64,000 bases of DNA from Escherichia coli (GTDB taxonomy: Bacteria; Pseudomonadota; Gammaproteobacteria; Enterobacterales; Enterobacteriaceae): the NCBI RefSeq assembly GCF_016903815.1, contig NZ_CP069973.1; one strand, given 5' to 3'. Positions 220-14,198 of the stretch are shown here, piece by piece; position 1 is the first letter of the stretch, and each line of letters starts with the position of its first letter. Below the pieces are notes generated by a model. It was not told the DNA's origin, did not search any database, and saw only the letters and a program-made list of their open reading frames with translations. A program made the position numbers and the translations under genes.

Positions 220-872
220 TTTTTTTCTCGTCTTTCTGGTTTGATGTCATTGAGCTATAAAGTAGTCAATAAACAATATTGACCGATCGTCTAATAATCA
301 ACGCTGATATCCCAGTGTTTGTCAGAAAACAAGAATTGCTTTTCTTTTCATCAGGTTAAATCTATCTTTTTTGATTTATATCAAACCAGATTCGGTCTTC
401 AATTATATAGGCATCAATGTTAGCGGTCCTACAAGATACGCAGTCGATGCTTCAGGGCGTACTGATGAAATAAAACAAGTAGGCTGAGATTAGTTGGTCT
501 GCTCATCGCTCACAGCGGACCTTCAGCTTCGTTAGCCAAGCGCTGACATAGTTACCGATGTAGCGTGTTAATCTGTCGGGAGCATAGCCGAAATCACTTA
601 ATCCATTAGACTTCACCTAAAACTGCAAAAATTACCGTCTTTGTCACACTCACCGAGTTTAATCAAACTAACACTGTACATAGTGCGAACAAGAGCCAAC
701 CAGAAAGACTGTTCAGCATCAACAGTGAAGTTTTTCCCCGCCACTTCCCCGCAATTCCTCCGCAGTTTTCCCACTAGAGAGTTCGACACATCCCTTGCAT
801 ACCAACGCTTTGATTCAAATCTCGGTAGTGCATCCAATTAGTAGAATATGTGTTTTTCGATAAATGCTCCGA

Positions 873-1232
873 TCACTTTTTCGTGGATCTCAACTGAGCG
901 TGAGAAGCAGATTGTTTACGAGCCAACCGCTTAATGTGGGTGCGTAGCGTCAGATTATTACGCTCAATGCGTTGGGTGAATATTTTGCCGGTCAGATGCT
1001 TATTCTTCGGCACCACCCGGCCATAGCTGTCCCAGTCATCGCTGGTGAGCATGCCGATGTTGAAGGGTGTAAGCAGTGCCAGTAGCTCCCGGCACGTTTG
1101 ATTGGTTCGGGGACCAAAAGTGTAGGCCAGTACACCGCCTGTTTTGGTGTTGTACGCGTACCAGAGCCAGTGTAGCCGGGCTTTACTGCCAACGTAGCTC
1201 CATTGCTCATCAAGCTCGCAGATAAGCGCCAC
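873..1232 (-). CDS. insB: IS1-family InsB-like transposase segment (probably expressed as InsAB' by -1 frameshift, or N-terminally truncated)
   Basis: 119 aa ORF ...CELDEQWSYVGSKARLHWLWYAYNTKTGGVLAYTFGPRT... matches the IS1 InsB catalytic region (compare [25 protein letters not shown]...). Confidence 0.7.
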   Translation of the reverse strand: MALICELDEQWSYVGSKARLHWLWYAYNTKTGGVLAYTFGPRTNQTCRELLALLTPFNIGMLTSDDWDSYGRVVPKNKHLTGKIFTQRIERNNLTLRTHIKRLARKQSASHAQLRSTKK

Positions 1233-1258
1233 ATCAGCATGGGCAACAGGCGAAGAAG

Positions 1259-1531
1259 TTATTTGCGTTGGCGCGAGTTTTTTAAAGTCCGGATGATGGT
1301 GTTAATACCAATTTTCAGTGTCCTGGCGGTATCGCGAACCCCGGCACCATTAAAGGCCATTTCAGTGATCATCTCTTTCATACCCGGCTTACGTGCTTGA
1401 TAAGTATAAGTGAGCTGAAACACACGGTGGCAGTCACGGCAGCGAAATCTGTCACGGCCTTTAGGGTTCTGACCATGGCGGTAAACCTGAGCTGACTGAC
1501 AACGGGGACAATGAATATTAACGCTGGCCAT
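1259..1531 (-). CDS. insA: IS1-family InsA-like protein (zinc-finger/HTH transposition regulator)
   Basis: 90 aa MASVNIHCPRCQSAQVYRHGQNPKGRDRFRCRDCHRVFQLTYTYQARKPG...; CxxC...CxxC pattern and colinearity with canonical IS1 InsA. Confidence 0.8.
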   Translation of the reverse strand: MASVNIHCPRCQSAQVYRHGQNPKGRDRFRCRDCHRVFQLTYTYQARKPGMKEMITEMAFNGAGVRDTARTLKIGINTIIRTLKNSRQRK

Positions 1532-1783
1532 GAGATAACCTCAAAAGCCCGTATTATACATCAGATTCAACCAATTAGAGGCATCACCCTTTCCTACATT
1601 CGTAGGACTTTGATTACATATAGCAAGGGTTAATTCTTATATACATAGAATAAATTAGGAATATAATGAATTTTATCGTGACGACCTTATTTATAATTAA
1701 TTTATATCGTCAGAGAAATTAGTGTCCACAACATGAAGCCTTACAAAGAGATTCTATGATTTAAAAAAAATAAGAGCCAGCTT

Positions 1784-3253
1784 ATGCATATCGATTCGAC
1801 TGAAAAAAATAATAAACAAAAGTTGGGCTTGCTTGCGCTAACATCCATTGTCGTGAGCTCGATGATCGGCAGCGGCGTTGACGGACTCCCCCAGAATATG
1901 GCGGAGAATTCTGCCGTGGGCCCGGTGGCGATAGCATGGATAGTCTGTGGTATCGGCATGTTTTTCATCTCCAGAACTTTTATCGTGCTGTCAAACATTA
2001 GACCTGATCTCCAGTCAGGAGTTTATATGTATGCCCGGGAAGGGTTCGGCCGATTTACGGCATTTAACGTCGCCTGGGGCTACTGGCTGATGACTATATT
2101 CAGCAACGTCGCCTTTGCCATTATGGTGATGGATACGCTGAATTATTTCTTACCAGGTGATTTCAAGGGAGGGAACAATATTCCTTCCGTTATCGGTGCC
2201 TCTTTGCTGATATGGGGATTCAACTTTTTAGTCCTCTCCGGTACCCGCATTGCCGGGTCGATTAACATCGTCGGCACGCTGGCCAAACTGATCCCGCTGG
2301 TGGCCTTTATTATTATTCTCATGCTGTTTATGAAGTACACCACGTTCGCAGATAACGTCTGGGGGCACAGCGCGAGTAAGGCCAGTCAGGACCTAGGCTC
2401 TATTTTCTCACAGGTAACTTCACCGCTTAGCGTGGCACTCTGGAGCTTCATCGGCGTTGAGGGGGCTGTCGCTCTTTCCGGTCGGGCCAAAAATAAACGC
2501 GACGTGGGTAAAGCCACATTCATTGGCTTCGTTGTATCACTGATTATCTGTCTGCTGGTCTCCATCCTGCCGTTTGGCGTGCTGACTCAACATGAGCTCA
2601 GCGCAATTCCAACCCCATCCACCGCCGGTATTCTGAAGATTGTTGTCGGTGAATGGGGGAAGATTATGATTATCTTGGGGGTGCTGATTTCGGTGCTTAC
2701 CAGCTGGCTGGCGTGGACCATCATCTGCGCCGAACTGCCTATGGTGGCCGCGCAGAACGGCACATTCCCGAAACCGTTCAGCAAAAAAAATGTGAAGGGT
2801 TCGGCCTCGGTTTCGCTTTATATAAGCAGTGCGTTTATGCAAATCGTCGTACTTCTGGTCTACTTTTCTAACGATGCCTGGCTTGCAATGCTGGCTATCT
2901 CTACCCTGACCGTTTTACCTGCGTATTTAATGACCACGGCATACCTGTTTAAACTATGTATTAGCGGCGAGTATGCCAGCTATACCACGAATCACAGCCG
3001 CAGCGCCGCGCTGGTCAGCAGTATTATCGGCTTTGTATTCTGCCTGTTTATGTTCTACGCCAGTGAAATCAAATATCTGGCGATGGTTCCGGTGCTGCTT
3101 ACGCTGGGCGTGCCCCTGTTTATCTGGGCAAGAAAAAAAGACGATCGCGCAGATAAAATATTTACGCTACGCGAACTGGCATTTTTTATTTTACTGCTGG
3201 TCCTCGACATCATTGTTTTTATTCTACTGCATTATAAAACGATACATTTTTAG
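1784..3253 (+). CDS. ArcD/YdgI-type basic amino acid/polyamine antiporter (APC superfamily, APA family), copy 1
   Basis: 489 aa; ATG at 1784 with AAGAG RBS; N-terminal KLGLLALTSIVVSSMIGSGV..LPQNMA motif and GVEGAVALSGRAKNKRDVGKAT motif typical of ArcD/YdgI arginine:ornithine-type exchangers; multiple hydrophobic helices. Confidence 0.85.
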   Translation: MHIDSTEKNNKQKLGLLALTSIVVSSMIGSGVDGLPQNMAENSAVGPVAIAWIVCGIGMFFISRTFIVLSNIRPDLQSGVYMYAREGFGRFTAFNVAWGYWLMTIFSNVAFAIMVMDTLNYFLPGDFKGGNNIPSVIGASLLIWGFNFLVLSGTRIAGSINIVGTLAKLIPLVAFIIILMLFMKYTTFADNVWGHSASKASQDLGSIFSQVTSPLSVALWSFIGVEGAVALSGRAKNKRDVGKATFIGFVVSLIICLLVSILPFGVLTQHELSAIPTPSTAGILKIVVGEWGKIMIILGVLISVLTSWLAWTIICAELPMVAAQNGTFPKPFSKKNVKGSASVSLYISSAFMQIVVLLVYFSNDAWLAMLAISTLTVLPAYLMTTAYLFKLCISGEYASYTTNHSRSAALVSSIIGFVFCLFMFYASEIKYLAMVPVLLTLGVPLFIWARKKDDRADKIFTLRELAFFILLLVLDIIVFILLHYKTIHF

Positions 3254-3357
3254 TCCAGATTAATTCACAGCAAGTTAAGGTGACGATAATGTCTGTTTCT
3301 TGGGCATGACATCCTCACAGTTAAATACTATCTGAACAGTAACAGTGGAGACACCTA

Positions 3358-5727
3358 ATGAAATTTAACCACAATCTTTTATTTATTTCCTCACAATATC
3401 TTGATGGCGACAACCCTTCGCAGCAGGTACTGGAAGAGCTTCAAACCGAACTCGCGGAACGCGGTTTTAAAATTCATATCACGCACCAGATCTCTGATGG
3501 ATTAAAAATCATCGAAAAAAGCCCCCAATACAGCGGGATTGGTTTTTACTGGGAGCCAGACAATCCGACCTTTGCAGAAGAGCTACAGCACTTTATCAGC
3601 ATATTCCGCAAAAGAAATGCCACGACGCCGCTGATAATTTTCTCAGAACAGAATATTACCGATCGTATCCCACTCGACGTCTTAAAAGAGGTCAGCGAAT
3701 ATGTTTATCTGTTCTCTGAATCCGCAGCCTTCACTGCCAATCGACTGTACTCCTTAGTCCACCGCTATGCGGATAAGCTTCTTCCTCCCTACTTTAAAAC
3801 CCTTAAGGACTTTACCGAGGACGGTGACTATTACTGGGACTGCCCGGGGCATATGGGGGGAATGGCCTATCTGAAACATCCTGTTGGCATTGAGTTCATT
3901 AACTTCTTTGGCGAAAACATGATGCGCGCTGATATTGGCGTGGCTACCGCGGAGATGGGGGATTATCTGATCCACGCCGGACCGCCTAAAAAATCGGAAG
4001 AAATTGCGGCCCGACTGTTTGGCTCTGATTGGACCTTCTACGGTGTTTCCGGCTCATCGGGGTCGAACCGTATTGTGGCCCAGGCTGCGGTTGGCGCAGA
4101 TGAAATTGCCATTATTGACCGAAATTGCCACAAGTCACTTAATCATGGCCTGACCTTGTCTCAGGCAAGGCCGGTTTACCTGAAACCTACCCGCAACGCG
4201 TGGGGGCTGATTGGGCCTATCCCGACCGGACGCCTGAAGAAGGCCAGTATTGATGCGCTGGTGGCAAACAGCCGACTGGCATCTGGTGCGGTCAGCCAGT
4301 CCCCGTCCTACGCCGTGGTAACCAACTGCACCTATGATGGCTTCTGTTATAACGTGAACGATGTAGTCAGACACCTGGGTGAAAGCGCACCGCGCATCCA
4401 TTTTGATGAAGCATGGTATGCCTATGCGCGTTTCCATCCGCTATACCAGAGTCGCTATGCAATGGACGCGGAGGAAACGCCAAATCGTCCAACCCTATTC
4501 GCCGTACAGTCCACCCATAAAATGCTGCCCTCACTCTCCATGGCCTCAATGATTCATGTGAAGAAAAGCGATCGCGCGCCGCTTAATTTCGATGACTTTA
4601 ACGATGCCTTTATGATGCACGGCACGACCTCACCCTACTACCCGATCATTGCATCAATTGATGTGGCAGTAAGCATGATGGAGGGTGAATCCGGTTATTC
4701 GCTTGTGCAGGAGTCAATTGAAGAAGCGATTGCCTTCCGTAAAGCCGTGGTCAGCGTCAAGCGCCAGCTCCAGGAGCAGGAAGGTGGTGACGCCTGGTTC
4801 TTCGATGTGCTTCAGCCAACCGAAGTGCAGGACAGCGATTCTGGGCAGCGATACAGTTTTGAAGAGGCACCCGTATCGCTGCTGAGCCACAGCGCCGACT
4901 GCTGGTCGCTGCGCTCCGGTGAGCGCTGGCACGGTTTTGCCGATGATGATCTGGTCGAAACCAACAGTATGCTCGATCCAGTAAAAGTGACCCTGACTTG
5001 TCCAGGGATCGGCCCGAAGGGAGAATACCAGAAAAACGGTATTCCGGGATATTTGCTGACCCGTTTTCTCGATGACCGTCGCATTGAAATTGCCCGTACT
5101 GGTGACTACACCGTGCTGATCCTGTTCTCCGTCGGCATCACCAAAGGCAAATGGGGAACTCTGATTGAAAGCCTGCTGGCCTTTAAAAAGCATTACGACA
5201 ATGACGATCTGGCCACAGATGCTATCCCGTCGCTGAAAGCGCATTCTCCACACTACGACACGCTAACCCTCAAGGAGCTATGTCAGATAATGCATGAAAA
5301 AATGGATGAGCTGGAGCTGATGTCGCATATCAACGACGCGGTAAACACCGATCCGGAACCAGTTATGACCCCGGCAGAAGCCTATCAGAAAGTCGTACGC
5401 TACAAAACCGAGCATATCCGGCTGGATGATTTTAGCGGCAGAATTGCCGCCAGCATGCTCGTCCCATATCCCCCAGGCATTCCTGTACTGATGCCGGGCG
5501 AACGGATGCCGCAAGGTAACAAGGGCATTATTGGCTATCTGCGCGCCCTGCAGGAATTCGATAAGCAATTCCCAGGTTTTGAACATGAGATCCAGGGCGT
5601 TAACGTCGATGAAGACGGGGACTTCTGGGTCAGAGCGATTGTGGAAGAAGAACGCGATGGGCAGTCGCTACCCGGCCACATAACCTTTAAACGCCAGGTC
5701 TCTGGTATTAAAAAGGGCCGCCAGTAG
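3358..5727 (+). CDS. PLP-dependent Orn/Lys/Arg decarboxylase, AdiA/CadA/SpeF family (fold-I, with N-terminal wing domain); substrate not assignable from sequence
   Basis: 789 aa; GGAGA RBS before ATG 3358; conserved blocks shared with E. coli AdiA (YWDCPGHMGG, SGSSGSNRIV, DRNCHKSLNHGL, VVTNCTYDGFCYN, HFDEAWYAYARF, STHKML with the PLP-binding Lys, ASIDVAVSMMEG, MLDPVKVTL, KGKWGTL, PYPPGIPVLMPGE, FPGFEHE). Longer than AdiA (755 aa) with a distinct C-terminal tail. Confidence 0.9.
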   Translation: MKFNHNLLFISSQYLDGDNPSQQVLEELQTELAERGFKIHITHQISDGLKIIEKSPQYSGIGFYWEPDNPTFAEELQHFISIFRKRNATTPLIIFSEQNITDRIPLDVLKEVSEYVYLFSESAAFTANRLYSLVHRYADKLLPPYFKTLKDFTEDGDYYWDCPGHMGGMAYLKHPVGIEFINFFGENMMRADIGVATAEMGDYLIHAGPPKKSEEIAARLFGSDWTFYGVSGSSGSNRIVAQAAVGADEIAIIDRNCHKSLNHGLTLSQARPVYLKPTRNAWGLIGPIPTGRLKKASIDALVANSRLASGAVSQSPSYAVVTNCTYDGFCYNVNDVVRHLGESAPRIHFDEAWYAYARFHPLYQSRYAMDAEETPNRPTLFAVQSTHKMLPSLSMASMIHVKKSDRAPLNFDDFNDAFMMHGTTSPYYPIIASIDVAVSMMEGESGYSLVQESIEEAIAFRKAVVSVKRQLQEQEGGDAWFFDVLQPTEVQDSDSGQRYSFEEAPVSLLSHSADCWSLRSGERWHGFADDDLVETNSMLDPVKVTLTCPGIGPKGEYQKNGIPGYLLTRFLDDRRIEIARTGDYTVLILFSVGITKGKWGTLIESLLAFKKHYDNDDLATDAIPSLKAHSPHYDTLTLKELCQIMHEKMDELELMSHINDAVNTDPEPVMTPAEAYQKVVRYKTEHIRLDDFSGRIAASMLVPYPPGIPVLMPGERMPQGNKGIIGYLRALQEFDKQFPGFEHEIQGVNVDEDGDFWVRAIVEEERDGQSLPGHITFKRQVSGIKKGRQ

Positions 5728-5745
5728 GCGGGGGAAAGAACAATA

Positions 5746-5771
5746 CCGTCGGATCGCCTGCAATCCGACGG
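5746..5771 (+). promoter_or_regulatory. Intercistronic stem-loop between the decarboxylase and the downstream antiporter (possible attenuator or mRNA processing/stability element)
   Basis: Inverted repeat CCGTCGGAT-cgcctgca-ATCCGACGG (9-bp stem) in the 74-bp spacer; no strong T-run follows. Confidence 0.4.
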
Positions 5772-5801
5772 CAATATTATAGAATAGCTGAGGGAAACGT
5801 T

Positions 5802-7301
5802 ATGGCAGAGCAATCTTCAGATGTAAAAAATAGTGACAATAGCGCCGGAGGACATAAGCTGGGGCTTATATCCCTCATCGCTATTGTCGTTAGCTCCATG
5901 CTGGGAGGCGGCGTTTTCAGTCTGCCGCAAAACACGGCGGCCTCTTCTGCACTAGGGCCAGTAATCATTGCATGGATTATTGCCGGGATCGGTATTTATT
6001 TTATCGCAAACTCCTTTCGCGTACTATCAGATCTGCGCCCGGACCTTCAGGCTGGAGTGTATATGTATGCCCAGGAAGGTTTTGGTTCCTTTATTGGCTT
6101 TAACGTCGCCTGGGGCTACTGGCTGATGACCGCATTTGGCAACGTTGCCTTTGCGGTAATTTTAATGGATGCTTTTAATCAGTTTATGCCGGGGGTTTTT
6201 ACGGATGGTAATAATCTGAACTCCATTATCTGCGGCTCAGTGCTGATCTGGGGCTATAATTTTCTTGTTCTGTCCGGGACGAAAGTGGCCGGATTTGTTA
6301 ACACCTTGGGAACCATCGCCAAGCTCGTCCCTCTGATCCTATTCGTATTACTGCTGGGTGTGCTGATCGATTATTCGGACCTGTTTAAAAACTTTTGGGG
6401 AGAATCACCCGCGATCCTCAGTGGCAACGGAAATGACGCCGCACCAGTATCGCTGCTGTCTCAGATTCTGGCACCGATGACCGTAACGCTCTGGGCCTTT
6501 ATTGGCGTCGAGGGAGCGGTTGTTCTATCCGGACGTGCCAAAAATAAACAGGACGTAGGGAAAGCCACACTGATCGGCTTTCTGCTGGCGCTAATTATTT
6601 ATATGTTAATGTCCATTCTGCCGTTCGGTGTAATGCCTCAGGCAGAACTAGCGCAGGTCAGTAACCCCTCTACCGCAGGCGTGCTCGCCCACGTTGTCGG
6701 TCAGTGGGGCGACTGGCTGATGAGCGCGGGGCTGATTATTTCTGTTCTGGCCGGCTGGCTTGCCTGGACCATGCTATGCGCTGAAATACCGATGGTAGCA
6801 GGACAGAAAGGCGCTTTCCCGCGCGCGTTTGCCCGAACGAACAGTAAACAGGCGGCCAATGTGTCACTGTGGGTTAGTAGCTTTGTGATGCAGGCGGCCA
6901 TGTTACTTGTTTATTTTTCAAATAATGCTTGGACCACCATGTATAATATCAGTGCGCTGATGGTTGTTCCGGCCTATATTACCACCACGCTGTATCTGAC
7001 CAGTATTTGCAGAAACGGAAAATATGATCAGTATGCAAAAAAAGGCCGCAGGCTGGCTTTGTCCAGCGGTGTTTTAGGCTCGCTATTCTGTCTGTTTATT
7101 CTTTACGCCAGCCAGATTGAGTATGTTGCATTAATTCCTATCCTGTTGACCTGTGGTCTGCCGGTCTTTATCTGGTCAAGAAAAGAAAAAAATGATGGTC
7201 AGCCGATATTTACCAAAAAAGAGCTGATTTATCTGATTATGCTGTTGCTGTGCGATATTATCGTCGTTGCCCTGTTTATTGGTGGATATTTAAAGGTATA
7301 A
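5802..7301 (+). CDS. ArcD/YdgI-type basic amino acid/polyamine antiporter (APA family), copy 2 (paralog of 1784..3253)
   Basis: 499 aa; GAGGGA RBS; same motifs as copy 1 (KLGLISLIAIVVSSMLGGGVFSLPQNTA, GVYMYAQEGFG, FNVAWGYWLMT, GVEGAVVLSGRAKNKQDVGKAT) with long collinear identity. Confidence 0.85.
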   Translation: MAEQSSDVKNSDNSAGGHKLGLISLIAIVVSSMLGGGVFSLPQNTAASSALGPVIIAWIIAGIGIYFIANSFRVLSDLRPDLQAGVYMYAQEGFGSFIGFNVAWGYWLMTAFGNVAFAVILMDAFNQFMPGVFTDGNNLNSIICGSVLIWGYNFLVLSGTKVAGFVNTLGTIAKLVPLILFVLLLGVLIDYSDLFKNFWGESPAILSGNGNDAAPVSLLSQILAPMTVTLWAFIGVEGAVVLSGRAKNKQDVGKATLIGFLLALIIYMLMSILPFGVMPQAELAQVSNPSTAGVLAHVVGQWGDWLMSAGLIISVLAGWLAWTMLCAEIPMVAGQKGAFPRAFARTNSKQAANVSLWVSSFVMQAAMLLVYFSNNAWTTMYNISALMVVPAYITTTLYLTSICRNGKYDQYAKKGRRLALSSGVLGSLFCLFILYASQIEYVALIPILLTCGLPVFIWSRKEKNDGQPIFTKKELIYLIMLLLCDIIVVALFIGGYLKV

Positions 7302-7443
7302 GTCCGAGTTAAATCTTTACTGGGCTAGTAATGCCGCCTTTTAAACAAGAAGGGCGGCAATCTTACTGAAATTAGTATGCTGCAAATCGGTAATGCTGCC
7401 AACTTACTGATTTAGTGTATGATGGTGATTTTAAGGTGCTTGC

Positions 7444-7719
7444 GTGGCTTCCATTTCCATCAGATGTCCTTCCTGCTCCGCTACTGAAGGCGTGGTGCGT
7501 AACGGCAAAAGCACTGCCGGACATCAGCGCTATCTCTGCTCTCACTGCCGTAAAACATGGCAACTGCAGTTCACTTACACCGCTTCTCAACCCGGTACGC
7601 ACCAGAAAATCATTGATATGGCCATGAATGGCGTTGGATGCCGGGCAACTGCCCGCATTATGGGCGTTGGCCTCAACACGATTTTACGTCACTTAAAAAA
7701 CTCAGGCCGCAGTCGGTAA
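7444..7719 (+). CDS. insA: IS1 InsA
   Basis: 91 aa [91 protein letters not shown]. Confidence 0.95.
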
Positions 7720-8141
7720 CCTCGCGCATACAGCCGGGCAGTGACGTCATCGTCTGCGCGGAAATGGGCGAACAGTGGGGCTATGTCGGGGCTAAATCGC
7801 GCCAGCGCTGGCTGTTTTACGCGTATGACAGGCTCCGGAAGACGGTTGTTGCGCACGTATTCGGTGAACGCACGATGGCGACGCTGGGGCGTCTTATGAG
7901 CCTGCTGTCACCCTTTGACGTGGTGATATGGATGACGGATGGCTGGCCGCTGTATGAATCCCGCCTGAAGGGAAAGCTGCACGTAATCAGCAAGCGATAT
8001 ACGCAGCGAATTGAGCGGCATAACCTGAATCTGAGGCAGCACCTGGCACGGCTGGGACGGAAGTCGCTGTCGTTCTCAAAATCGGTGGAGCTGCATGACA
8101 AAGTCATCGGGCATTATCTGAACATAAAACACTATCAATAA
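7638..8141 (+). CDS. insB: IS1 InsB (expressed as InsAB' fusion by frameshift)
   Basis: 167 aa ORF ...[40 protein letters not shown]...[10 protein letters not shown], canonical IS1 InsB. Confidence 0.95.
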
Positions 8142-8156
8142 GTTGGAGTCATTATC

Positions 8157-8949
8157 TAACCGTAGCGTTTATTACGCGCAGGTGACGCGTCCTGTTAATG
8201 TGCAAAGAATTGACTTACGAAGTCGGGTGAGGGCTTTCCATGCTCTCAGTCGTGGCGCAGCCGGTAGCCGTGCAATCAGTCAGATGTTGCGCCAGAGTAG
8301 CGTTGATGCAGGCCGGTGGCTGGCACGACGACTGATGCGGGAATGCGGGCTGACAAGTCGACAGATGGTTAAACATCACTACCGGGTCAACGAAGACAAA
8401 AGTCCGCCATTGCCAAATTTACTGAACCGGCAATTTCACCCCGCCGCACCAGACCGCGTCTGGTGCGGCGACATCAGTTTTATTCGCCTGCATGACAAAT
8501 GGTGTTAGCTCGCGCTCGTTGTTGATTTATATTCACGGCGGATTACCGGTTCAGCCCTCTCATTAACCGCTGATGCTGAGTTGGTGTGTAGGGCTTTGCG
8601 TAATGCACTGGAAACACGATCACGTGATGGCCGTCTGCTGTTTCATTCAGATCAAGGTGTTCAGTATAAAAGCAATAAATACAGAAAGTTACTCTGGCGT
8701 TATGGGGTAATGCAAAGTATGAGTTGCAGAGGGAATGGCCTGGATAATTCGCCGATGGAAAGAGTCTTTCGCAGCCTTAAAAATGAATGGCTTCCGAAAG
8801 GTGGTTATGGTGATTTTATCCATGCGGTACGTGATATAAACCAGTGGATTAATGGTTATTACAACGTTTATCGACCTCACACGAACAACGATGGTTTACC
8901 GCCTTGCTTACATGAAGAAAAGTGGAAACAGGTTATTCCGGTGTCCTGA
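8157..8949 (+). pseudogene. IS3-family transposase OrfB remnant: 5' part (OrfA and start of OrfB) removed by the IS1 insertion, plus an in-frame TAG at 8506-8508
   Basis: Single reading frame translates ...[49 protein letters not shown]...[11 protein letters not shown]...[13 protein letters not shown]...[15 protein letters not shown], collinear with IS3/IS2-type OrfB; the amber codon sits where family members have Tyr (WLYLAVV). 3' end of the element not precisely located (probably within ~40 bp after 8949). Confidence 0.8.
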
Positions 8950-9166
8950 TTTTGTGAACCACTACAATAATCCTTTTTCACAGACTTGTCAGCAGCCAGC
9001 ATTTATGTTCTTTTACCTGCGGGAATTTATCCGTCTGCCTGTCGGGACTACTCTGTCATACAGAAATCAGGTAGGAATAAATTGTAGTGGAAAGTCGATG
9101 TTTACCGGATGACTGATGCGCGCTTGTACACAGACAGTGTGTTTCAGTAATATGGAGAATAATGAA

Positions 9167-9667
9167 ATGAATAACACAGACACATTAGAAAAAATAATCA
9201 GACACCAAAAAAACAAAGACCCCGCATATCCCTTTCGGGAACATTTGTTGATGCAGCTCTGTATTCGCACAAATAAAAGAATGCAGGATAATATATCTGA
9301 ATTTCTGGGGGCGTATGGAATAAATCACTCAGCATATATGGTTCTCACCACATTATTCGCAGCGGAGAACCATTGTCTGTCACCTTCAGAGATAAGCCAG
9401 AAACTTCAGTTTACCAGAACTAATATTACCCGCATTACAGATTTTTTAGAAAAAGCCGGATATGTAAAAAGGACGGATAGCAGGGAGGATCGCCGTGCTA
9501 AAAAAATCAGTCTGACATCTGAAGGTATGTTTTTTATTCAGAGGCTCACTCTTGCACAAAGCATGTATCTGAAAGAAATCTGGGATTATCTGACTCATGA
9601 TGAACAGGAACTGTTTGAAGTCATTAATAAAAAATTACTGGCACATTTTTCTGATGCCAGCTCATAA
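9167..9667 (+). CDS. MarR-family transcriptional regulator, EmrR/MprA-like (possibly a PapX/SfaX-type 17-kDa regulator)
   Basis: ORF 9116..9667; likely start ATG 9167 after GGAGA. Sequence ...YPFREHLLMQLCIRTNKRM...GINHSAYMVLTTLFAAENHCLSPSEISQKLQFTRTNITRITDFLEKAGYVKRTDSREDRRAKKISLTSEG... aligns with EmrR (winged-helix region [28 protein letters not shown]). Surrounded by AT-rich DNA. Confidence 0.8.
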   Translation: MNNTDTLEKIIRHQKNKDPAYPFREHLLMQLCIRTNKRMQDNISEFLGAYGINHSAYMVLTTLFAAENHCLSPSEISQKLQFTRTNITRITDFLEKAGYVKRTDSREDRRAKKISLTSEGMFFIQRLTLAQSMYLKEIWDYLTHDEQELFEVINKKLLAHFSDASS

Positions 9668-10133
9668 AGTGCGAAATATCTGAGGATGCTGGATAGCTTC
9701 AGGCAAGAGAATAATGATTCTTGCAGATGTGTTTTTCCGGATACAAAAACAAAAGTAAAAAATTGCAGCGCCAGGCCACCTTTCAAAGCAGGGAGGCTTG
9801 TACCGCGTCGAAAATTTCAGCCAGTTAATGTAATTGTCTGAACCAGGCACTTCGCCCGGGCAGGAGAAGGAGCGTGGTTGCGGTCATCCTGTATACTGAA
9901 GTCGTTATGAAGGAATAATACAAATAATTGCCCGTTTTCTCTGTACGATAGAGGCAGGTGTGTATGATTGCATCACTATGTTTTTGTGATATAAAAAACT
10001 AAATGGTGAGATATGCATTTTAAAATATAACAAAAATCACCATGAAATAAGAATAATTATCCACGGAGAACATAAACTGCAGACTGTTACAATGCATGCT
10101 GTTCATCTTGACAATGTCGGTAATGACTCCAAC

Positions 10134-10637
10134 TTATTGATAGTGTTTTATGTTCAGATAATGCCCGATGACTTTGTCATGCAGCTCCACCGATTTTGAG
10201 AACGACAGCGACTTCCGTCCCAGCCGTGCCAGGTGCTGCCTCAGATTCAGGTTATGCCGCTCAATTCGCTGCGTATATCGCTTGCTGATTACGTGCAGCT
10301 TTCCCTTCAGGCGGGATTCATACAGCGGCCAGCCATCCGTCATCCATATCACCACGTCAAAGGGTGACAGCAGGCTCATAAGACGCCCCAGCGTCGCCAT
10401 CGTGCGTTCACCGAATACGTGCGCAACAACCGTCTTCCGGAGCCTGTCATACGCGTAAAACAGCCAGCGCTGGCGCGATTTAGCCCCGACATAGCCCCAC
10501 TGTTCGCCCATTTCCGCGCAGACGATGACGTCACTGCCCGGCTGTATGCGCGAGGTTACCGACTGCGGCCTGAGTTTTTTAAGTGACGTAAAATCGTGTT
10601 GAGGCCAACGCCCATAATGCGGGCAGTTGCCCGGCAT
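10134..10637 (-). CDS. insB: IS1 InsB
   Basis: 167 aa, identical in translation to the InsB at 7638..8141. Confidence 0.95.
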
Positions 10638-10831
10638 CCAACGCCATTCATGGCCATATCAATGATTTTCTGGTGCGTACCGGGTTGAGAAGCGGTGTAA
10701 GTGAACTGCAGTTGCCATGTTTTACGGCAGTGAGAGCAGAGATAGCGCTGATGTCCGGCAGTGCTTTTGCCGTTACGCACCACGCCTTCAGTAGCTGAAC
10801 AGGAGGGACAGCTGATAGAAACAGAAGCCAC
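10556..10831 (-). CDS. insA: IS1 InsA
   Basis: 91 aa [37 protein letters not shown]..., canonical InsA. Confidence 0.95.
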
Positions 10832-11360
10832 TGGAGCACCTCAAAAACACCATCATACACTAAATCAGTAAGTTGGCAGCATCACCCAATCTGCTGACAG
10901 ACGAAGATAATGAACCCGTTATGGTTTTTAACGGAGAGAGGAATGTACTGGCAGACAGTCTGAAACCACAGCCTCTGATTCTTCCGGTCAAGGGAAAATA
11001 AGCGTAATGTTCATCACCAGATTATGTACGATGAGTTTTCCACTGTTTATAGCAATTATCTTGCTAATAACCAGACAGGAGTAACCAGACCAACCGAAAA
11101 CACCGGGAAGGTGATTACCCGCTGGCAGAGGAAATCCGGTTTTTTTTGATGTCAGCCATAACGTGTTTGACAATAAAGCATCATGAAAGGGTGTTAATGA
11201 GTCCATGGGATAATTCATAAAAATAATTTACTGTGTTATCCTTTTCAAAAGAAATATTCAGAAGATAACCCCTGGCTGACAACCAGGGGAAGGGGGCATT
11301 AACAGTGTTATTATTGGTGAATAAATTATTACTTGTGTGCAGGATACACTAATGCAATAT

Positions 11361-12434
11361 CTACTGATACTGTATGCCAGTATGTTTCATGCCTGCCGCT
11401 GAAAACGGCAATATCCAGGGCCAGACATATTCACCATTCATATTTCTGCATTTCTGTACAATTTTCTCAGAAAGCGTCTCATCAATTCTTTCACGCAACT
11501 TCTCCTGCTGTCTTAAAATACTTTCGCATATTTCGAAATCATCTTCCTGCATCAGCATTTCGGCGCATTTAATGATTTCTGCCCGTTCATGCAGCACAGA
11601 GGAATGATTATAGAGCCAGTTTACAAACAGCAATGCTTCCGGATATTGCCCCCATAACGGGTGGTATGTGGCATAATAATCTTCGGCAGTATCCGGACCG
11701 CCTGAAAAGTTATGCCATACAGCAAGTGGAAATGGATGCAGATTTCCGCACAGTATTTCTGCGATGTAAGTATTTGCCGCAAAGCCGCGACGAAATGCAG
11801 TTGCAGCTTTTACCAGTTCCCCATTAAGAAAATGCAGAAGGCCGAGTTCATACCAGTAAGGTGAAAATTCATCTGCATGTTCCTGCAGTATATGGCGTGC
11901 CTGTTCATGAGCGCCAGTGCGTAACAGTTCCGGTCCCAGTAGCCAGCGTGCACCATGATTATCTTCGGGATTGTAATCCAGTATTTTTTCAATGAGCATG
12001 ATGGCATCCTGATGACGCCGTAAATGTGCATTTGCCAGGATTGCCGCATAGAGGGCACGAAGAAAAGGTCGGTTGTCAGGATGTATCCAGATGATTCTGC
12101 CACTGAAACCTTCAGGGATAAGACGATTGCCAACTGCCAGCCCTTTAAGGGCAGCATTCAGCGCCTTACGCGGGGCATTCTGCTCCAGAAATACGTATGC
12201 CAAGTGAGCGTGTACATCAATAAAGTCATTCTCCTGTCGGGCAAGGCGCCTGAGTTTGTTGATGTAACTTGTTTCGCTGATTTCATCCGCATCGTATGCA
12301 TCAATCAGTTCTTCAAACTCATCCAGCAACGAGCCAAACCAGGTTTCCGGAAATATGAAACAGCCCTGGTTATCGTTCACTTCAAAGCGTAATTTGCCAG
12401 TCATATTCTGAACCTGTAAAAAAGGATGGACCAT
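11361..12434 (-). CDS. Hypothetical protein (island cargo next to integrase); helical-repeat (TPR-like) character, function unknown
   Basis: 357-aa ORF (possible internal start at MTGKL...); no family recognised from memory; lies immediately downstream of the integrase region inside the pheU island. Confidence 0.55.
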   Translation of the reverse strand: MVHPFLQVQNMTGKLRFEVNDNQGCFIFPETWFGSLLDEFEELIDAYDADEISETSYINKLRRLARQENDFIDVHAHLAYVFLEQNAPRKALNAALKGLAVGNRLIPEGFSGRIIWIHPDNRPFLRALYAAILANAHLRRHQDAIMLIEKILDYNPEDNHGARWLLGPELLRTGAHEQARHILQEHADEFSPYWYELGLLHFLNGELVKAATAFRRGFAANTYIAEILCGNLHPFPLAVWHNFSGGPDTAEDYYATYHPLWGQYPEALLFVNWLYNHSSVLHERAEIIKCAEMLMQEDDFEICESILRQQEKLRERIDETLSEKIVQKCRNMNGEYVWPWILPFSAAGMKHTGIQYQ

Positions 12435-12616
12435 AACCTGCAGGCTATAAAAATTGTGATGCCTGGCATCGGTGTCCTTTTATTGTCCGGGATTAACGTT
12501 GCCCATGATAATACAGTGAATTCTGTTCTGTGGTAAGACGTTGAGTTATTGAATGAGAACCTCAGCCTGGCTGATGGTTCCGCCGGCATAAAAAAGAAAT
12601 TGATTGAGGCGGGTGC

Positions 12617-12640
12617 TCTTCCCCTTAAGAGGAAGAGCAT
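12617..12640 (-). terminator. Near-perfect 12-bp inverted repeat just downstream of the integrase stop (possible terminator or protein-binding palindrome)
   Basis: GCTCTTCCCCTT/AAGAGGAAGAGC palindrome with one mismatch; T-run on minus strand is somewhat distal. Confidence 0.35.
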
Positions 12641-12659
12641 GTGTGTAAATGGCGTTCAG

Positions 12660-13925
12660 TCACCTTTTCAGTGGATTGTTAACTTTTGCATATTCAAACG
12701 GACTGATACACTCCTCCCTGTTTGCATCCAGAAAATCTGCCCACCATTGCAGCATAAGCCGACGTTCTTCCAGATGTTCTGCTTTATGAATATACGCGGC
12801 ACGTACTCCGTTGCGCTCCTGATGACTCATCTGACGTTCAACCGCATCTCTTGACCATAAGCCGGATTCAATCAATGCACTGCACGCCATCGCCCGGAAT
12901 CCATGGCCACAGACTTCCTTGGTTGTGTCATACCCCATCACCCTCAGGGCTTTATTTACAGTATTTTCACTGATTGGTTTACGCGGGTCATGTGCACCCG
13001 TAAATATCAGACCATTTTCACCTGCCCATGTCTGAAGTTCTGTCAGTATGGCTACAGCCTGTTTACTGAGTGGCACAAGATGTGGTGTCCGCATCTTGGA
13101 GCCCCGGTGTGAGAATTTTACGCCAGGCAGAGGTTCGCGTTCGGCTGGAATAGTCCACATGGCATTGTCAATATCAATTTCAGACCAGCGGGCATATCTG
13201 AGTTCACTGGAACGAATAAAAACCAGTAAATTCAGCATAACGGCAAGCCGGGTGACAGGCTGGCCTTTATAACCGTCAATACGCGACAGAAGTTCAGGCA
13301 GGCGTGAAAGATTCAGAGCGGGGCGATGCTGGCGTTTTACCGTGGTCAATGCACCAGCCATATCCAGAGCCGGGTTATATCTGATGATGCCAGACTGTAC
13401 GGCGTAACGCATTACAGCAGATATTCTTTGCTGCAGACGACTAGCGATTTCATAAATTTGTTTTGCTTCTGCAGCACGAACAGGGATAAGCAGGTCCGGG
13501 GTATTGAGTGTTGTGATATCCCGGTTGCCGATAAAGGGGAAAACGTGTGTCTCGAGGCTTTTGAGTACTTTATCGCTGTGTGATTGTGCCCATTGTTTAT
13601 TACTGGCATGCCAGCGTCGTGCAATATGTTCAAAAGAGAGCTGTAAATCAGGGACTACTTTTTTAACTCTTTTCTGTTCGCAAGGGTCAATCCCCTCTGA
13701 AATCAGTTTTCGGGCCTCATCCCGTTTTGTACGAGCTTCGGAGAGAGAAACTTCTGGATACACACCAAGTGCCAGAGTCTTCTCCTTACCCAGAATACGA
13801 TAACGGAGACGCCAGTAACGGGAACCATTAGGATGAACCAGCAGGAACATGCCGGCCCCGTCAGTGAGTTTATAAGCCTTGTCAGTGGGCTTTGCAGCCC
13901 GGATTTTTGCGTCAGTCAGTGCCAT
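12660..13925 (-). CDS. P4-type (phage/island) tyrosine integrase, tRNA-associated
   Basis: 421 aa MALTDAKIRAAKPTDKAYKLTDGAGMFLLVHPNGSRYWRLRYR..GKEKTLALGVYPEVSLSEARTKRDEARKLI...; C-terminal region with HGFRAMACSALIESG...R and catalytic-type motifs; adjacent to the 3' end of tRNA-Phe. Confidence 0.93.
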   Translation of the reverse strand: MALTDAKIRAAKPTDKAYKLTDGAGMFLLVHPNGSRYWRLRYRILGKEKTLALGVYPEVSLSEARTKRDEARKLISEGIDPCEQKRVKKVVPDLQLSFEHIARRWHASNKQWAQSHSDKVLKSLETHVFPFIGNRDITTLNTPDLLIPVRAAEAKQIYEIASRLQQRISAVMRYAVQSGIIRYNPALDMAGALTTVKRQHRPALNLSRLPELLSRIDGYKGQPVTRLAVMLNLLVFIRSSELRYARWSEIDIDNAMWTIPAEREPLPGVKFSHRGSKMRTPHLVPLSKQAVAILTELQTWAGENGLIFTGAHDPRKPISENTVNKALRVMGYDTTKEVCGHGFRAMACSALIESGLWSRDAVERQMSHQERNGVRAAYIHKAEHLEERRLMLQWWADFLDANREECISPFEYAKVNNPLKR

Positions 13926-14085
13926 AGTTCAGCCTTCTGAATGCGTTAAAGAGGGTATAAATTCTGTCGAACTGGGGTATGCCCACAATTATACCCACAC
14001 AATGAGGTTGATGTGGGGGGAATCTGGTTGAGTTCGGTAGAATTGATTTGGAGGCAGGACGCTTAAATCGTGGCGTCCTGGAATG

Positions 14086-14110
14086 AAAAACGGACCTCCG
14101 TGGAGGTCCG
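14086..14110 (-). terminator. Rho-independent terminator of pheU
   Basis: Palindrome CGGACCTCCG-TGGAGGTCCG followed (on minus strand) by a T-run, immediately 3' of the tRNA. Confidence 0.7.
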
Positions 14111-14122
14111 TTGATATGAATT

Positions 14123-14198
14123 TGGTGCCCGGACTCGGAATCGAACCAAGGACACGGGGATTTTCAATCCCCTGCTCTACCGACTGAGCTATCCGGGC
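14123..14198 (-). tRNA. pheU: tRNA-Phe(GAA)
   Basis: Reverse complement reads GCCCGGATAGCTCAGTCGGTAGAGCAGGGGATTGAAAATCCCCGTGTCCTTGGTTCGATTCCGAGTCCGGGCACCA (76 nt, CCA end, GAA anticodon). Confidence 0.97.

Follow-up and report, generated by a model that had tools for sequence, protein, structure and literature searches.

The sequence analyzed here (the window) is a stretch of 64,000 nucleotides (nt) from the Escherichia coli contig NZ_CP069973.1 (assembly GCF_016903815.1). Near its left end lies a module of three genes, in which a decarboxylase dependent on pyridoxal 5′-phosphate (PLP) stands between two paralogous antiporters, T1 and T2. With moderate confidence, we read this module as a putative histidine decarboxylase accompanied by two ArcD/HdcP-like exchangers of histidine and histamine, which together would give acid resistance and histamine output. 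We favor this reading because the side-chain pocket of the enzyme is unlike those of lysine, ornithine, and arginine decarboxylases and because a family member in Photobacterium lies in hdcT1-decarboxylase-hisRS synteny. The latter observation points to histidine, whereas the preliminary description of this DNA had considered the substrate unreadable from the sequence. The genes of the module are as follows.

1784–3253, plus strand: T1, 489 amino acids (aa), an ArcD/HdcP-like exchanger of the APC family and the putative accessory paralogue (open reading frame listing, profile scores)
3358–5727, plus strand: decarboxylase, 789 aa, a wing-domain PLP enzyme of the aspartate aminotransferase (AAT) fold, member of a ~790-aa clade (open reading frame listing, alignments)
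5802–7301, plus strand: T2, 499 aa, an ArcD/HdcP-like exchanger, the putative ancestral and the best-conserved partner of the decarboxylase

The open reading frame (ORF) listing of the window placed these three co-oriented, intact genes exactly where they had first been described, with 104 nt between T1 and the decarboxylase and 74 nt between the decarboxylase and T2. Good ribosome-binding sites had been claimed for all three. Shine-Dalgarno-like motifs were found upstream of the decarboxylase start (GGAG) and of T2 (GAGG), and that of T1 was weaker (AAGAG). RefSeq annotates the same three coding sequences in hundreds of E. coli genomes under the generic names "Orn/Lys/Arg family decarboxylase" and "basic amino acid/polyamine antiporter". 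The G+C content of the module was 48.8%, vs. 51.1% in adjoining core genes.

The wing domain, the STHK motif with the PLP-lysine, and the other motif blocks quoted in the preliminary description were all present in the decarboxylase. Pfam domains PF03709 (N-terminal wing), PF01276 (major PLP), and PF03711 (C-terminal) were precomputed for a 99%-identical representative (P0001) and for the listed homologues, and the protein aligned over its full length with structures of AdiA, LdcI, and ornithine decarboxylase (ODC). In the alignment, cofactor residues H258, D350, W353, S385, and K388 corresponded to CadA H245, D330, W333, S364, and K367 and were invariant in the family; the mutated active site that had earlier been entertained was not found, all five residues being intact. 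The motifs S385-T386-H387-K388, T322-N323-x-T325-Y326-D327-G328, H348-F-D-E-A-W-Y354, and P703-Y-P-P-G-I-P709 were likewise invariant in the family alignment. An AlphaFold2 model (mean predicted local distance difference test score 80.5) confirmed the fold and matched AdiA structures best, followed by LdcI, LdcA, and ODC; the active-site loops of this monomer (155–170, 190–207, and 387–394) were of low confidence. The enzyme also has the distinct C-terminal tail that was first reported (762–789), which runs ~28 residues past the end of AdiA, and its residues 780–789 are predicted to be disordered. The ...IKKGRQ ending is conserved in a tight core clade of ~790-aa homologues (59–87% identity).

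Identity of the decarboxylase was 39% to AdiA, 37% to LdcC, 36% to CadA, and 32% to both SpeF and SpeC, and its distance from AdiA was about the same as that between AdiA and CadA. It scored below all curated NCBIfam cut-offs. The best match was the AdiA equivalog NF011603 (740 bits vs. a cut-off of 1167), and lower scores were obtained with the lysine decarboxylase models NF011929 (562 vs. 1056) and NF011928 (622 vs. 968) and with the SpeF/SpeC ornithine models (429 vs. 794 and 425 vs. 1310). Trees were built by neighbor joining (NJ), and the enzyme fell in a clade apart from the AdiA, LdcI/C, and ODC groups. Wing-domain decarboxylases have been split into four groups, with "hidden paralogy" remarked in the Adc group (Carriel et al. 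2018, PMC6257575), and the ~790-aa clade is none of these four. Judged by these comparisons, the decarboxylase is not an orthologue of any characterized E. coli enzyme, and the proposal that the module is distinct from adi, cad, and speF-potE was borne out.

Cryo-electron microscopy of Hafnia alvei LdcI showed the epsilon-ammonium of lysine held by T149, S181, S183, and E526 (PMC12091041). We took the residues aligned to these four positions as the pocket signature, which read as follows in the known enzymes, in the core clade, and in a deeper clade of more distant homologues.

CadA, LdcC, and P. aeruginosa LdcA (6q6i): T-S-S-E
SpeF and SpeC: C-C-A-E (the Glu is E532 in SpeF)
AdiA: A-G-E-T (A159, G191, E193, T571)
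Core clade: C-G-A-A in 21/21 loci (C162, G194, A196, A579 in the E. coli enzyme)
Deep clade: A-G-S-A in 63/63 loci

No acidic residue occupied the third or fourth position in the core or deep clade, and the position of CadA L190 held an aromatic residue specific to the family, namely Y203 (or W), vs. Leu in the other groups. With AdiA, the E. coli enzyme has the Gly alone in common, AdiA E193 and T571 being replaced by Ala; with SpeF/SpeC it has C162 and A196 in common and differs at Gly194 and Ala579. As a set of aligned residues, this signature argues against a canonical lysine, ornithine, or arginine pocket. Neighboring paralogues are informative as well. At one locus of a metagenome-assembled genome (MAG), L025, the family enzyme adjoins a paralogue with a lysine-type pocket and lies near an ODC-like one, and in Dyella (L090) it also adjoins a paralogue with a lysine-type pocket. 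The family enzyme would therefore have a specificity that is not redundant with these.

The adjoining paralogues (L025:10491–12815 and L090:10404–12740) had AdiA as their best NCBIfam match (900 and 976 bits, below the cut-off) and a T-S-S-E pocket, and the same pocket was found in the representatives P0124, P0126, and P0132, which the tree places in its "AdiA" portion. All of these are probably lysine decarboxylases, which automatic annotation would call arginine decarboxylases. An Ldc from Burkholderia AIU 395, which is mentioned in PMC6257575, agrees with this. An assignment of the module to arginine by elimination, drawn from ornithine-type and "AdiA-like" neighbors, was dropped once the latter were seen to carry the lysine pocket and the histidine context emerged. 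Near the base of the family, P0122 (794 aa) and P0125 (790 aa) had the PLP-lysine replaced (E or S) and W333 lost, and P0125 also lacked H245; both look like catalytically dead wing-domain pseudoenzymes.

The histidine context was found in Photobacterium kishitanii (L097). The family decarboxylase at this locus shares 62% identity with the E. coli enzyme, has the same C-G-A-A pocket, and is identical at the equivalents of D161, E199, D202, and Y203; the Photobacterium member P0108 fell inside the core clade in the NJ tree. The permease encoded upstream is 72–76% identical to HdcT1 of the classical hdc clusters (P. damselae, Morganella, K. aerogenes) and reached 738 bits on the histidine-histamine antiporter model TIGR04298 (cut-off 750). 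The downstream gene is a hisS paralogue, 58–59% identical to the HisRS of hdc clusters, that passes the hisS equivalog model. Classical clusters have the order hdcT1-hdc-(hdcT2)-hisRS, and at L097 the family enzyme holds the position of hdc, which suggests that it replaced hdc there. Of the aminoacyl-tRNA synthetase genes found next to family members, only this hisS paralogue belongs to a recognizable decarboxylation cluster. A serS gene beside the Bordetella avium module was discarded as a substrate hint for its housekeeping ftsK-lolA-rarA-serS context, and alaS beside the module in an alphaproteobacterial MAG was discarded as a single case.

An alternative histidine decarboxylase, "hdc2", has been recorded in 11 P. 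phosphoreum strains and one P. carnosum strain, according to PMC8671102, which cites Bjornsdottir-Butler et al. 2020 for "a novel enzyme ... with histidine decarboxylase activity". Proteins from P. phosphoreum, P. kishitanii, P. carnosum, and P. toruni make up the cluster in which the Photobacterium member falls at 90% identity. Synteny, species distribution, and this secondary citation indicate that hdc2 is probably a member of the ~790-aa family. With 62% identity to the Photobacterium member and the same pocket, the E. coli enzyme would be expected to use histidine as well.

The antiporters are 55% identical to each other, 37–38% identical to YdgI (ArcD-like), and 21–31% identical to AdiC, CadB, and PotE, in agreement with their first description as ArcD/YdgI-type paralogues. 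The only model they passed was the APA subfamily TIGR00905 (487 bits for T1 and 493 for T2, cut-off 409). Both fell below the cut-offs of the ArcD equivalog TIGR03810 (441 and 450 vs. 591), the histidine-histamine antiporter model NF040512 (437 and 415 vs. 725), and the HdcT-type TIGR04298 (121–134 vs. 750). T1 and T2 scored about equally on NF040512 and on the ArcD model, which we counted in favor of histidine, and T2 is 36% identical to Tetragenococcus HdcC. Both are predicted to swap histidine for histamine. T2 orthologues in other genera are 72–86% identical and T1 orthologues 59–76%, and in single-transporter lineages the lone transporter groups with T2, T1 not being present. We thus regard T2 as the ancestral partner of the decarboxylase and T1 as a later paralogue. 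Where AdiC has its binding site, T1 and T2 carry nearly identical residues and differ only at AdiC positions 26 (S/G), 100 (S/G), and 203 (C/A). Such similar predicted sites speak for a difference in kinetics, pH range, or mode rather than in substrate, and the two proteins may have separable roles, e.g., different pH ranges or exchange vs. net uptake.

In the proposed mechanism, T2 and its paralogue T1 would bring histidine in and take histamine out, and the 789-aa PLP enzyme, probably a decameric wing-domain relative of AdiA and LdcI, would decarboxylate histidine in the cytoplasm. One proton would be used per decarboxylation turnover, and export of the more positively charged amine would contribute to the membrane potential and proton-motive force. 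The net effect would be cytoplasmic alkalinization (a rise in internal pH), energy conservation, and release of histamine outside the cell. This logic of precursor/product antiport is standard in adi, cad, speF-potE, gad, and hdc systems.

Outside E. coli, core-clade members were found in Hafnia, Proteus (P. vulgaris, P. faecis, and P. terrae), Providencia, Salmonella diarizonae, Citrobacter, Klebsiella, Commensalibacter, Orbus, Bordetella, Alcaligenes, Acinetobacter, Ignatzschineria, Photobacterium, Shewanella, Victivallis, and other Lentisphaeria. The deeper branch (48–52% identity) comprised Acidobacteriaceae, Rhodanobacteraceae, and Methanosarcina. The deep representatives nearest to the clade match LdcA best. 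Gene layouts were as follows (DC, decarboxylase; T, transporter).

T1-DC-T2: Enterobacterales, Commensalibacter, Alcaligenaceae
DC-T2-porin-T1: Acinetobacter
DC-T-T: Ignatzschineria and one metagenome contig
DC-T2: Lentisphaeria, an alphaproteobacterial MAG, Amphritea
No ArcD-like transporter nearby: the Acidobacteria/Methanosarcina branch

Adjacent, co-oriented decarboxylase and exchanger genes (T1-DC-T2 or DC-T2) were kept in Enterobacterales, Alcaligenaceae, Acetobacteraceae, Moraxellaceae, and Lentisphaeria, and no arcABC genes were found in the loci examined. The duplicated transporter had been taken as a mark of the E. coli module; the two-transporter layout turned out to be conserved across the proteobacterial clade. 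An AraC-family regulator gene lies 5′ of the module in Proteus, Hafnia, and Alcaligenes and is missing from the Citrobacter and Klebsiella loci. No locus gave an AdiY match, and the regulator is not an AdiY orthologue. In Providencia rustigianii (L032:12112–13137), two Bordetella species (L017:12100–13122 and L018 ~12098–13117), and Acinetobacter (L005:11992–13017), a ~341-aa FomA-family porin-like gene (NF049910, 405 bits) lies directly 3′ of T2; a Pfam scan of its product gave no match, the assignment coming from NCBIfam. This gene is a possible fourth component, a candidate outer-membrane channel reminiscent of AaxA, the porin of the chlamydial arginine decarboxylase system. On an Enterobacter-type contig (L100), the module lies beside acid-stress genes for Slp, YfdX, and an HdeD-like protein, a circumstantial hint at an acid-stress role.

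No conserved neighbors were found for the Acidobacteria/Methanosarcina deep clade, where the sole "conserved" ORF was an antisense artefact overlapping the decarboxylase gene. Deep-branch members with 52% identity, some with the C-terminal tail, were present in Methanosarcina spelaei and other Methanosarcinaceae/Euryarchaeota (L027, L028, L030), which suggests inter-domain transfer as a possible route. Two deep-branch copies (L081 and L082) lie on one 29.6-kb contig of a lichen Acidobacteriaceae MAG. In Bordetella avium (L004:10448–16000), the T1-DC-T2 block, an ABC-ATPase-like ORF, and a D-serine-dehydratase-like gene lie between rarA and serS, where all of them appear to have been inserted. 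The housekeeping order at that site in E. coli is ftsK-lolA-rarA-serS.

In the window, the module is bounded by insertion sequence (IS) elements and lies in a tRNA-anchored island. The flanking features are listed below.

~826–1588, minus strand: divergent IS1-family element at the left module boundary, with frameshifted InsA/InsB-like ORFs at 1259–1531 and 873–1232
1589–1783, plus strand: AT-rich leader of 195 bp, the sole native upstream DNA kept
7328–7366, plus strand: GC-rich hairpin TGCCGCC...GGCGGCA 3′ of the T2 stop codon, with no T-run (sequence inspection)
7389–8156, plus strand: IS1 copy at the right module boundary (ORFs, blastn)
12660–14198, minus strand: island anchor, made up of a tyrosine-type integrase gene (~12660–13925) and the tRNA-Phe gene pheU (14123–14198)

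The left element has IS1-like terminal repeats (GGTAGTGCATCC... at 826 and, as reverse complement, GGTGATGCCTC... ending at 1588), and it is annotated as "IS1 family transposase, frameshifted" in the loci of strains 7/2, CFT073, and S88. It was not detected by blastn with the right-hand IS1 as the query and is thus a different IS1 type. Consequently, a composite IS1 transposon carrying the module was rejected. A true IS1 pair, formed by the copy at 7389–8156 and an inverted, 98% identical copy at ~10121–10886, encloses a MarR gene instead of the module. The segment bracketed by these copies (7389–10886) contains a fragment of IS3 and, at 9116–9667, a MarR-family regulator gene that is intact; it is inverted in S88 relative to the window and missing from CFT073, where glycoside hydrolase and MFS transporter genes are found instead. 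The best promoter-like site in the leader, TATACA-16-TATAAT at 1640–1667, is a consensus match of a kind as frequent in shuffled sequence. The hairpin at 7328–7366 was not called by the terminator scan and is a possible operon end.

The integrase position was carried over from the annotation of the 100% identical strain 7/2 (window position = L001 position − 13301), in which the integrase adjoins tRNA-Phe, followed by dicD-dsbD-cutA-dcuA-aspA. We identified the tRNA-Phe site as pheU because dicD-dsbD-cutA lies next to the integrase in that strain. The pheU island location given in the preliminary description holds for the window; elsewhere the site can also be pheV. In strain TO6 (L096, locus 4428–5896), the same IS-bracketed block lies in the pheV island, adjoining yqgA-speC, with T1 frameshifted. 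The decarboxylase gene lies at about 0.85–0.97 Mb in many genomes, which suggests that pheV is a common site. In the model extraintestinal pathogenic E. coli (ExPEC) strains CFT073 and S88, the block lies in the pheU island with IS flanks as in the window. A few kb 5′ of the module, these two islands (L094 and L095, 1–4000) also hold the Qat anti-phage genes qatC/qatD and a gene pair for SLATT-domain and nucleotide-binding-domain proteins. The CFT073 enzyme has the accession WP_000671170.

Among 5,426 complete E. coli genomes, 494 contained the 5.7-kb block (at least 80% query coverage), in nearly every case with an identity of 99% or higher, and the decarboxylase gene by itself was found in 508 genomes. 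Carriers make up ~9% of complete genomes, roughly 1 in 11, and the module is horizontally acquired. Between the window and the TO6 allele (98.8% identical), the decarboxylase showed 18 synonymous and 10 non-synonymous codon changes and T2 showed 11 and 5. The resulting ratio of non-synonymous to synonymous substitution rates (dN/dS), which compares two allele groups, was roughly 0.15–0.2. This low ratio and the intact ORFs in ~500 genomes argue for a function of the module in E. coli.

Several observations weigh against the histidine reading. The best sequence, hidden Markov model (HMM), and fold matches of the decarboxylase are all AdiA, and database names for family members are "arginine decarboxylase" or "Orn/Lys/Arg", with none named histidine decarboxylase. 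An identity of 62% leaves space for a shift in specificity. The HdcT1/hisRS context was confined to Photobacterium among the loci examined, and no hisS was found near the E. coli module. T1 and T2 belong to a different subfamily from the Photobacterium HdcT1-type antiporter and keep the equivalents of AdiC Y74 and S357. The evidence linking hdc2 to the family consists of the synteny, the range of species, and a citation at second hand, and no database source uses the name. In E. coli, the AraC-type regulator and the porin are absent, with IS elements at both positions, and with the T1 frameshift in TO6 this leaves expression uncertain. We infer that the system would nevertheless be acid-inducible and expressed in E. 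coli despite the missing regulator and porin.

The matches to AdiA would fit a second arginine-dependent acid-resistance system, in which an AdiA paralogue forms agmatine and T1 and T2 are ArcD-derived arginine/agmatine exchangers. AdiA is also the best match among PDB sequences, both enzymes have Gly as the second pocket residue, the antiporters are ArcD-like and keep AdiC residues N101 and W293 in addition to the two above, and the sources annotate the enzyme as an arginine decarboxylase. We consider this unlikely, however. The score on the AdiA equivalog is 740 bits against 1167, E193 and T571 of AdiA are both replaced by Ala, and the 39% identity to AdiA is no greater than identities between known specificity classes. 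Moreover, the Photobacterium member lies inside a histidine cluster, and K-12 has adi at its own native locus apart from pheU, so that, as judged from K-12, E. coli would probably gain only redundancy from a second module for arginine. An ornithine, lysine, or bifunctional enzyme, with each antiporter serving one substrate/product pair, has very little probability in our view. SpeF does have in common the pocket-wall residues D161, C162, A196, and D202 and the MGD-LIH motif; ornithine is bound by ArcD-type carriers; the deep-branch Dyella member lies near a transporter passing both PotE models; and a three-component ornithine/lysine system with a shared antiporter is known from Lactobacillus (cited in PMC6257575). 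Yet the Glu of CadA (E526) and SpeF (E532), present in every lysine or ornithine enzyme examined, is absent, as is T-S-S-E. The lysine-pocket and ODC-like paralogues at L025 would already cover these substrates, and the nearly identical binding sites predicted for T1 and T2 are unlike what two different substrate pairs would require. Just as slight is the chance of a substrate outside these four amino acids, such as citrulline or a neutral amino acid (leucine, valine). The pocket is made up of uncharged small residues (C-G-A-A), and the family occurs in the three Proteus species named above; no gene neighborhood points to such a substrate, T1 and T2 belong to a family of basic amino acid/polyamine antiporters, and the Photobacterium context indicates histidine. 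A link to an orphan leucine/valine decarboxylase activity reported from Proteus vulgaris found no support, and a literature search for the Proteus enzyme gave nothing usable.

A further alternative concerns the state of the module in E. coli rather than its substrate. It could be silent cargo, intact and unexpressed, with no phenotype, after IS insertions removed its regulator and porin. The AraC-type regulator seen in Proteus, Hafnia, and Alcaligenes is gone and 195 bp of native upstream DNA are left; the FomA-type porin gene is missing, T1 is frameshifted in TO6, and near-identical alleles in ~500 genomes suggest a recent spread with little time for decay. We nonetheless regard silent cargo as quite improbable, given that all three ORFs are intact in ~500 genomes, that dN/dS is about 0.15–0.2 between the two allele groups, that the Citrobacter and Klebsiella loci likewise lack the AraC gene, and that the leader has a promoter-like site, albeit as a consensus match only.

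As to novelty, no description of the E. coli cluster was found in the searchable literature, and to this extent it is uncharacterized, as first claimed; the claim does not extend to the family, one member of which is probably known as "hdc2" (PMC8671102). The kind of system is known already, and one family member has probably been characterized in food microbiology. Apparently new to the literature are the module of E. coli/ExPEC, its ArcD/HdcP-type double antiporter, and its wide spread in host-associated Proteobacteria, along with the pocket signature marking a distinct specificity class and the systematic mis-annotation as arginine decarboxylase. A broader proposal is possible but tentative: the family may form a fifth specificity class of wing-domain enzymes, acting on histidine through an uncharged, aromatic-lined pocket, which ExPEC and commensal E. 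coli (~9% of complete genomes) bear at pheU/pheV with two dedicated exchangers and which would make histamine in the gut or urinary tract.

If histidine is the substrate, the database label "arginine" or "Orn/Lys/Arg decarboxylase" would be wrong and the enzymes would really be histidine decarboxylases. Roughly 1 in 11 sequenced E. coli, including standard uropathogenic and meningitis model strains, would be histamine producers, as would many strains of Proteus, Hafnia, Providencia, Citrobacter, Klebsiella, Acinetobacter, and Bordetella. Gut surveys, metagenomics, and food-safety polymerase chain reaction assays aimed at the classical hdc would miss the family, which could account for hdc-negative histamine formers in fish and meat. 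Histamine from E. coli could bear on acid survival, mucosal immunity, visceral pain, and asthma-linked dysbiosis. The enzyme would also be a natural case of the AdiA/LdcI scaffold re-tuned to a non-aliphatic side chain.

Among known systems, AdiA-AdiC of E. coli, Salmonella, and Providencia resembles the module in fold, in domain order (wing, PLP, AAT-like, C-terminal), and in the logic of a decarboxylase with an antiporter. It differs in its 39% identity, a model score below the cut-off, and another pocket, and the antiporters of the module are of another subfamily and duplicated. The adiY gene of the adi locus and the AraC-family gene beside the module in some genera are similarly placed but not orthologous. 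LdcI/LdcC, LdcA, and SpeF/SpeC belong to the same superfamily and have the same catalytic residues, but identity is 32–37% (CadA, LdcC, SpeF, and SpeC) and their T-S-S-E and C-C-A-E pockets are not found in the module enzyme. ArcD and E. coli YdgI are the closest nameable relatives of T1 and T2 (37–38% for YdgI); unlike ArcD, whose model cut-off they miss, T1 and T2 come without arcABC and are paired with a decarboxylase.

The Photobacterium cluster that probably corresponds to "hdc2" has a decarboxylase of the same family (62%), the same pocket, and an adjacent antiporter gene. Its antiporter is of the AdiC/HdcT type, present as a single copy, and a hisS paralogue follows, whereas the E. coli module contains two antiporters of the ArcD/HdcP type and lacks hisS. 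The Photobacterium enzyme (~770 aa) is without the basic tail of ~20 residues at the C terminus of its E. coli counterpart. In Morganella, the classical cluster has the order hdcT1-hdc-hdcT2-hisRS (PMC12072131), which we also found at locus L091 and which breaks the earlier rule that enterobacterial modules pair one decarboxylase with one antiporter. It resembles the E. coli module in its antiporter-decarboxylase-antiporter layout and in the predicted conversion of histidine to histamine with exchange. However, the classical Hdc is a 378-aa group II PLP enzyme (PF00282) of a fold class unrelated to the wing-domain family. A classical 378-aa hdc, 85% identical to Morganella Hdc, has been recorded from one E. 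coli genome (P0332), and the species may hold two unrelated histamine routes. Morganella HdcT1 and HdcT2 cluster with AdiC and not with T1, T2, or ArcD, for which reason we rejected T1 and T2 as HdcT1/HdcT2 orthologues left in place while the decarboxylase was swapped. Judged by protein family, the resemblance in layout between Morganella and E. coli is convergence and not shared descent. With Morganella hdcT1/hdcT2 as an independent arrival at the same layout, T1 and T2 offer a tractable case for the repeated evolution of two antiporters around one decarboxylase.

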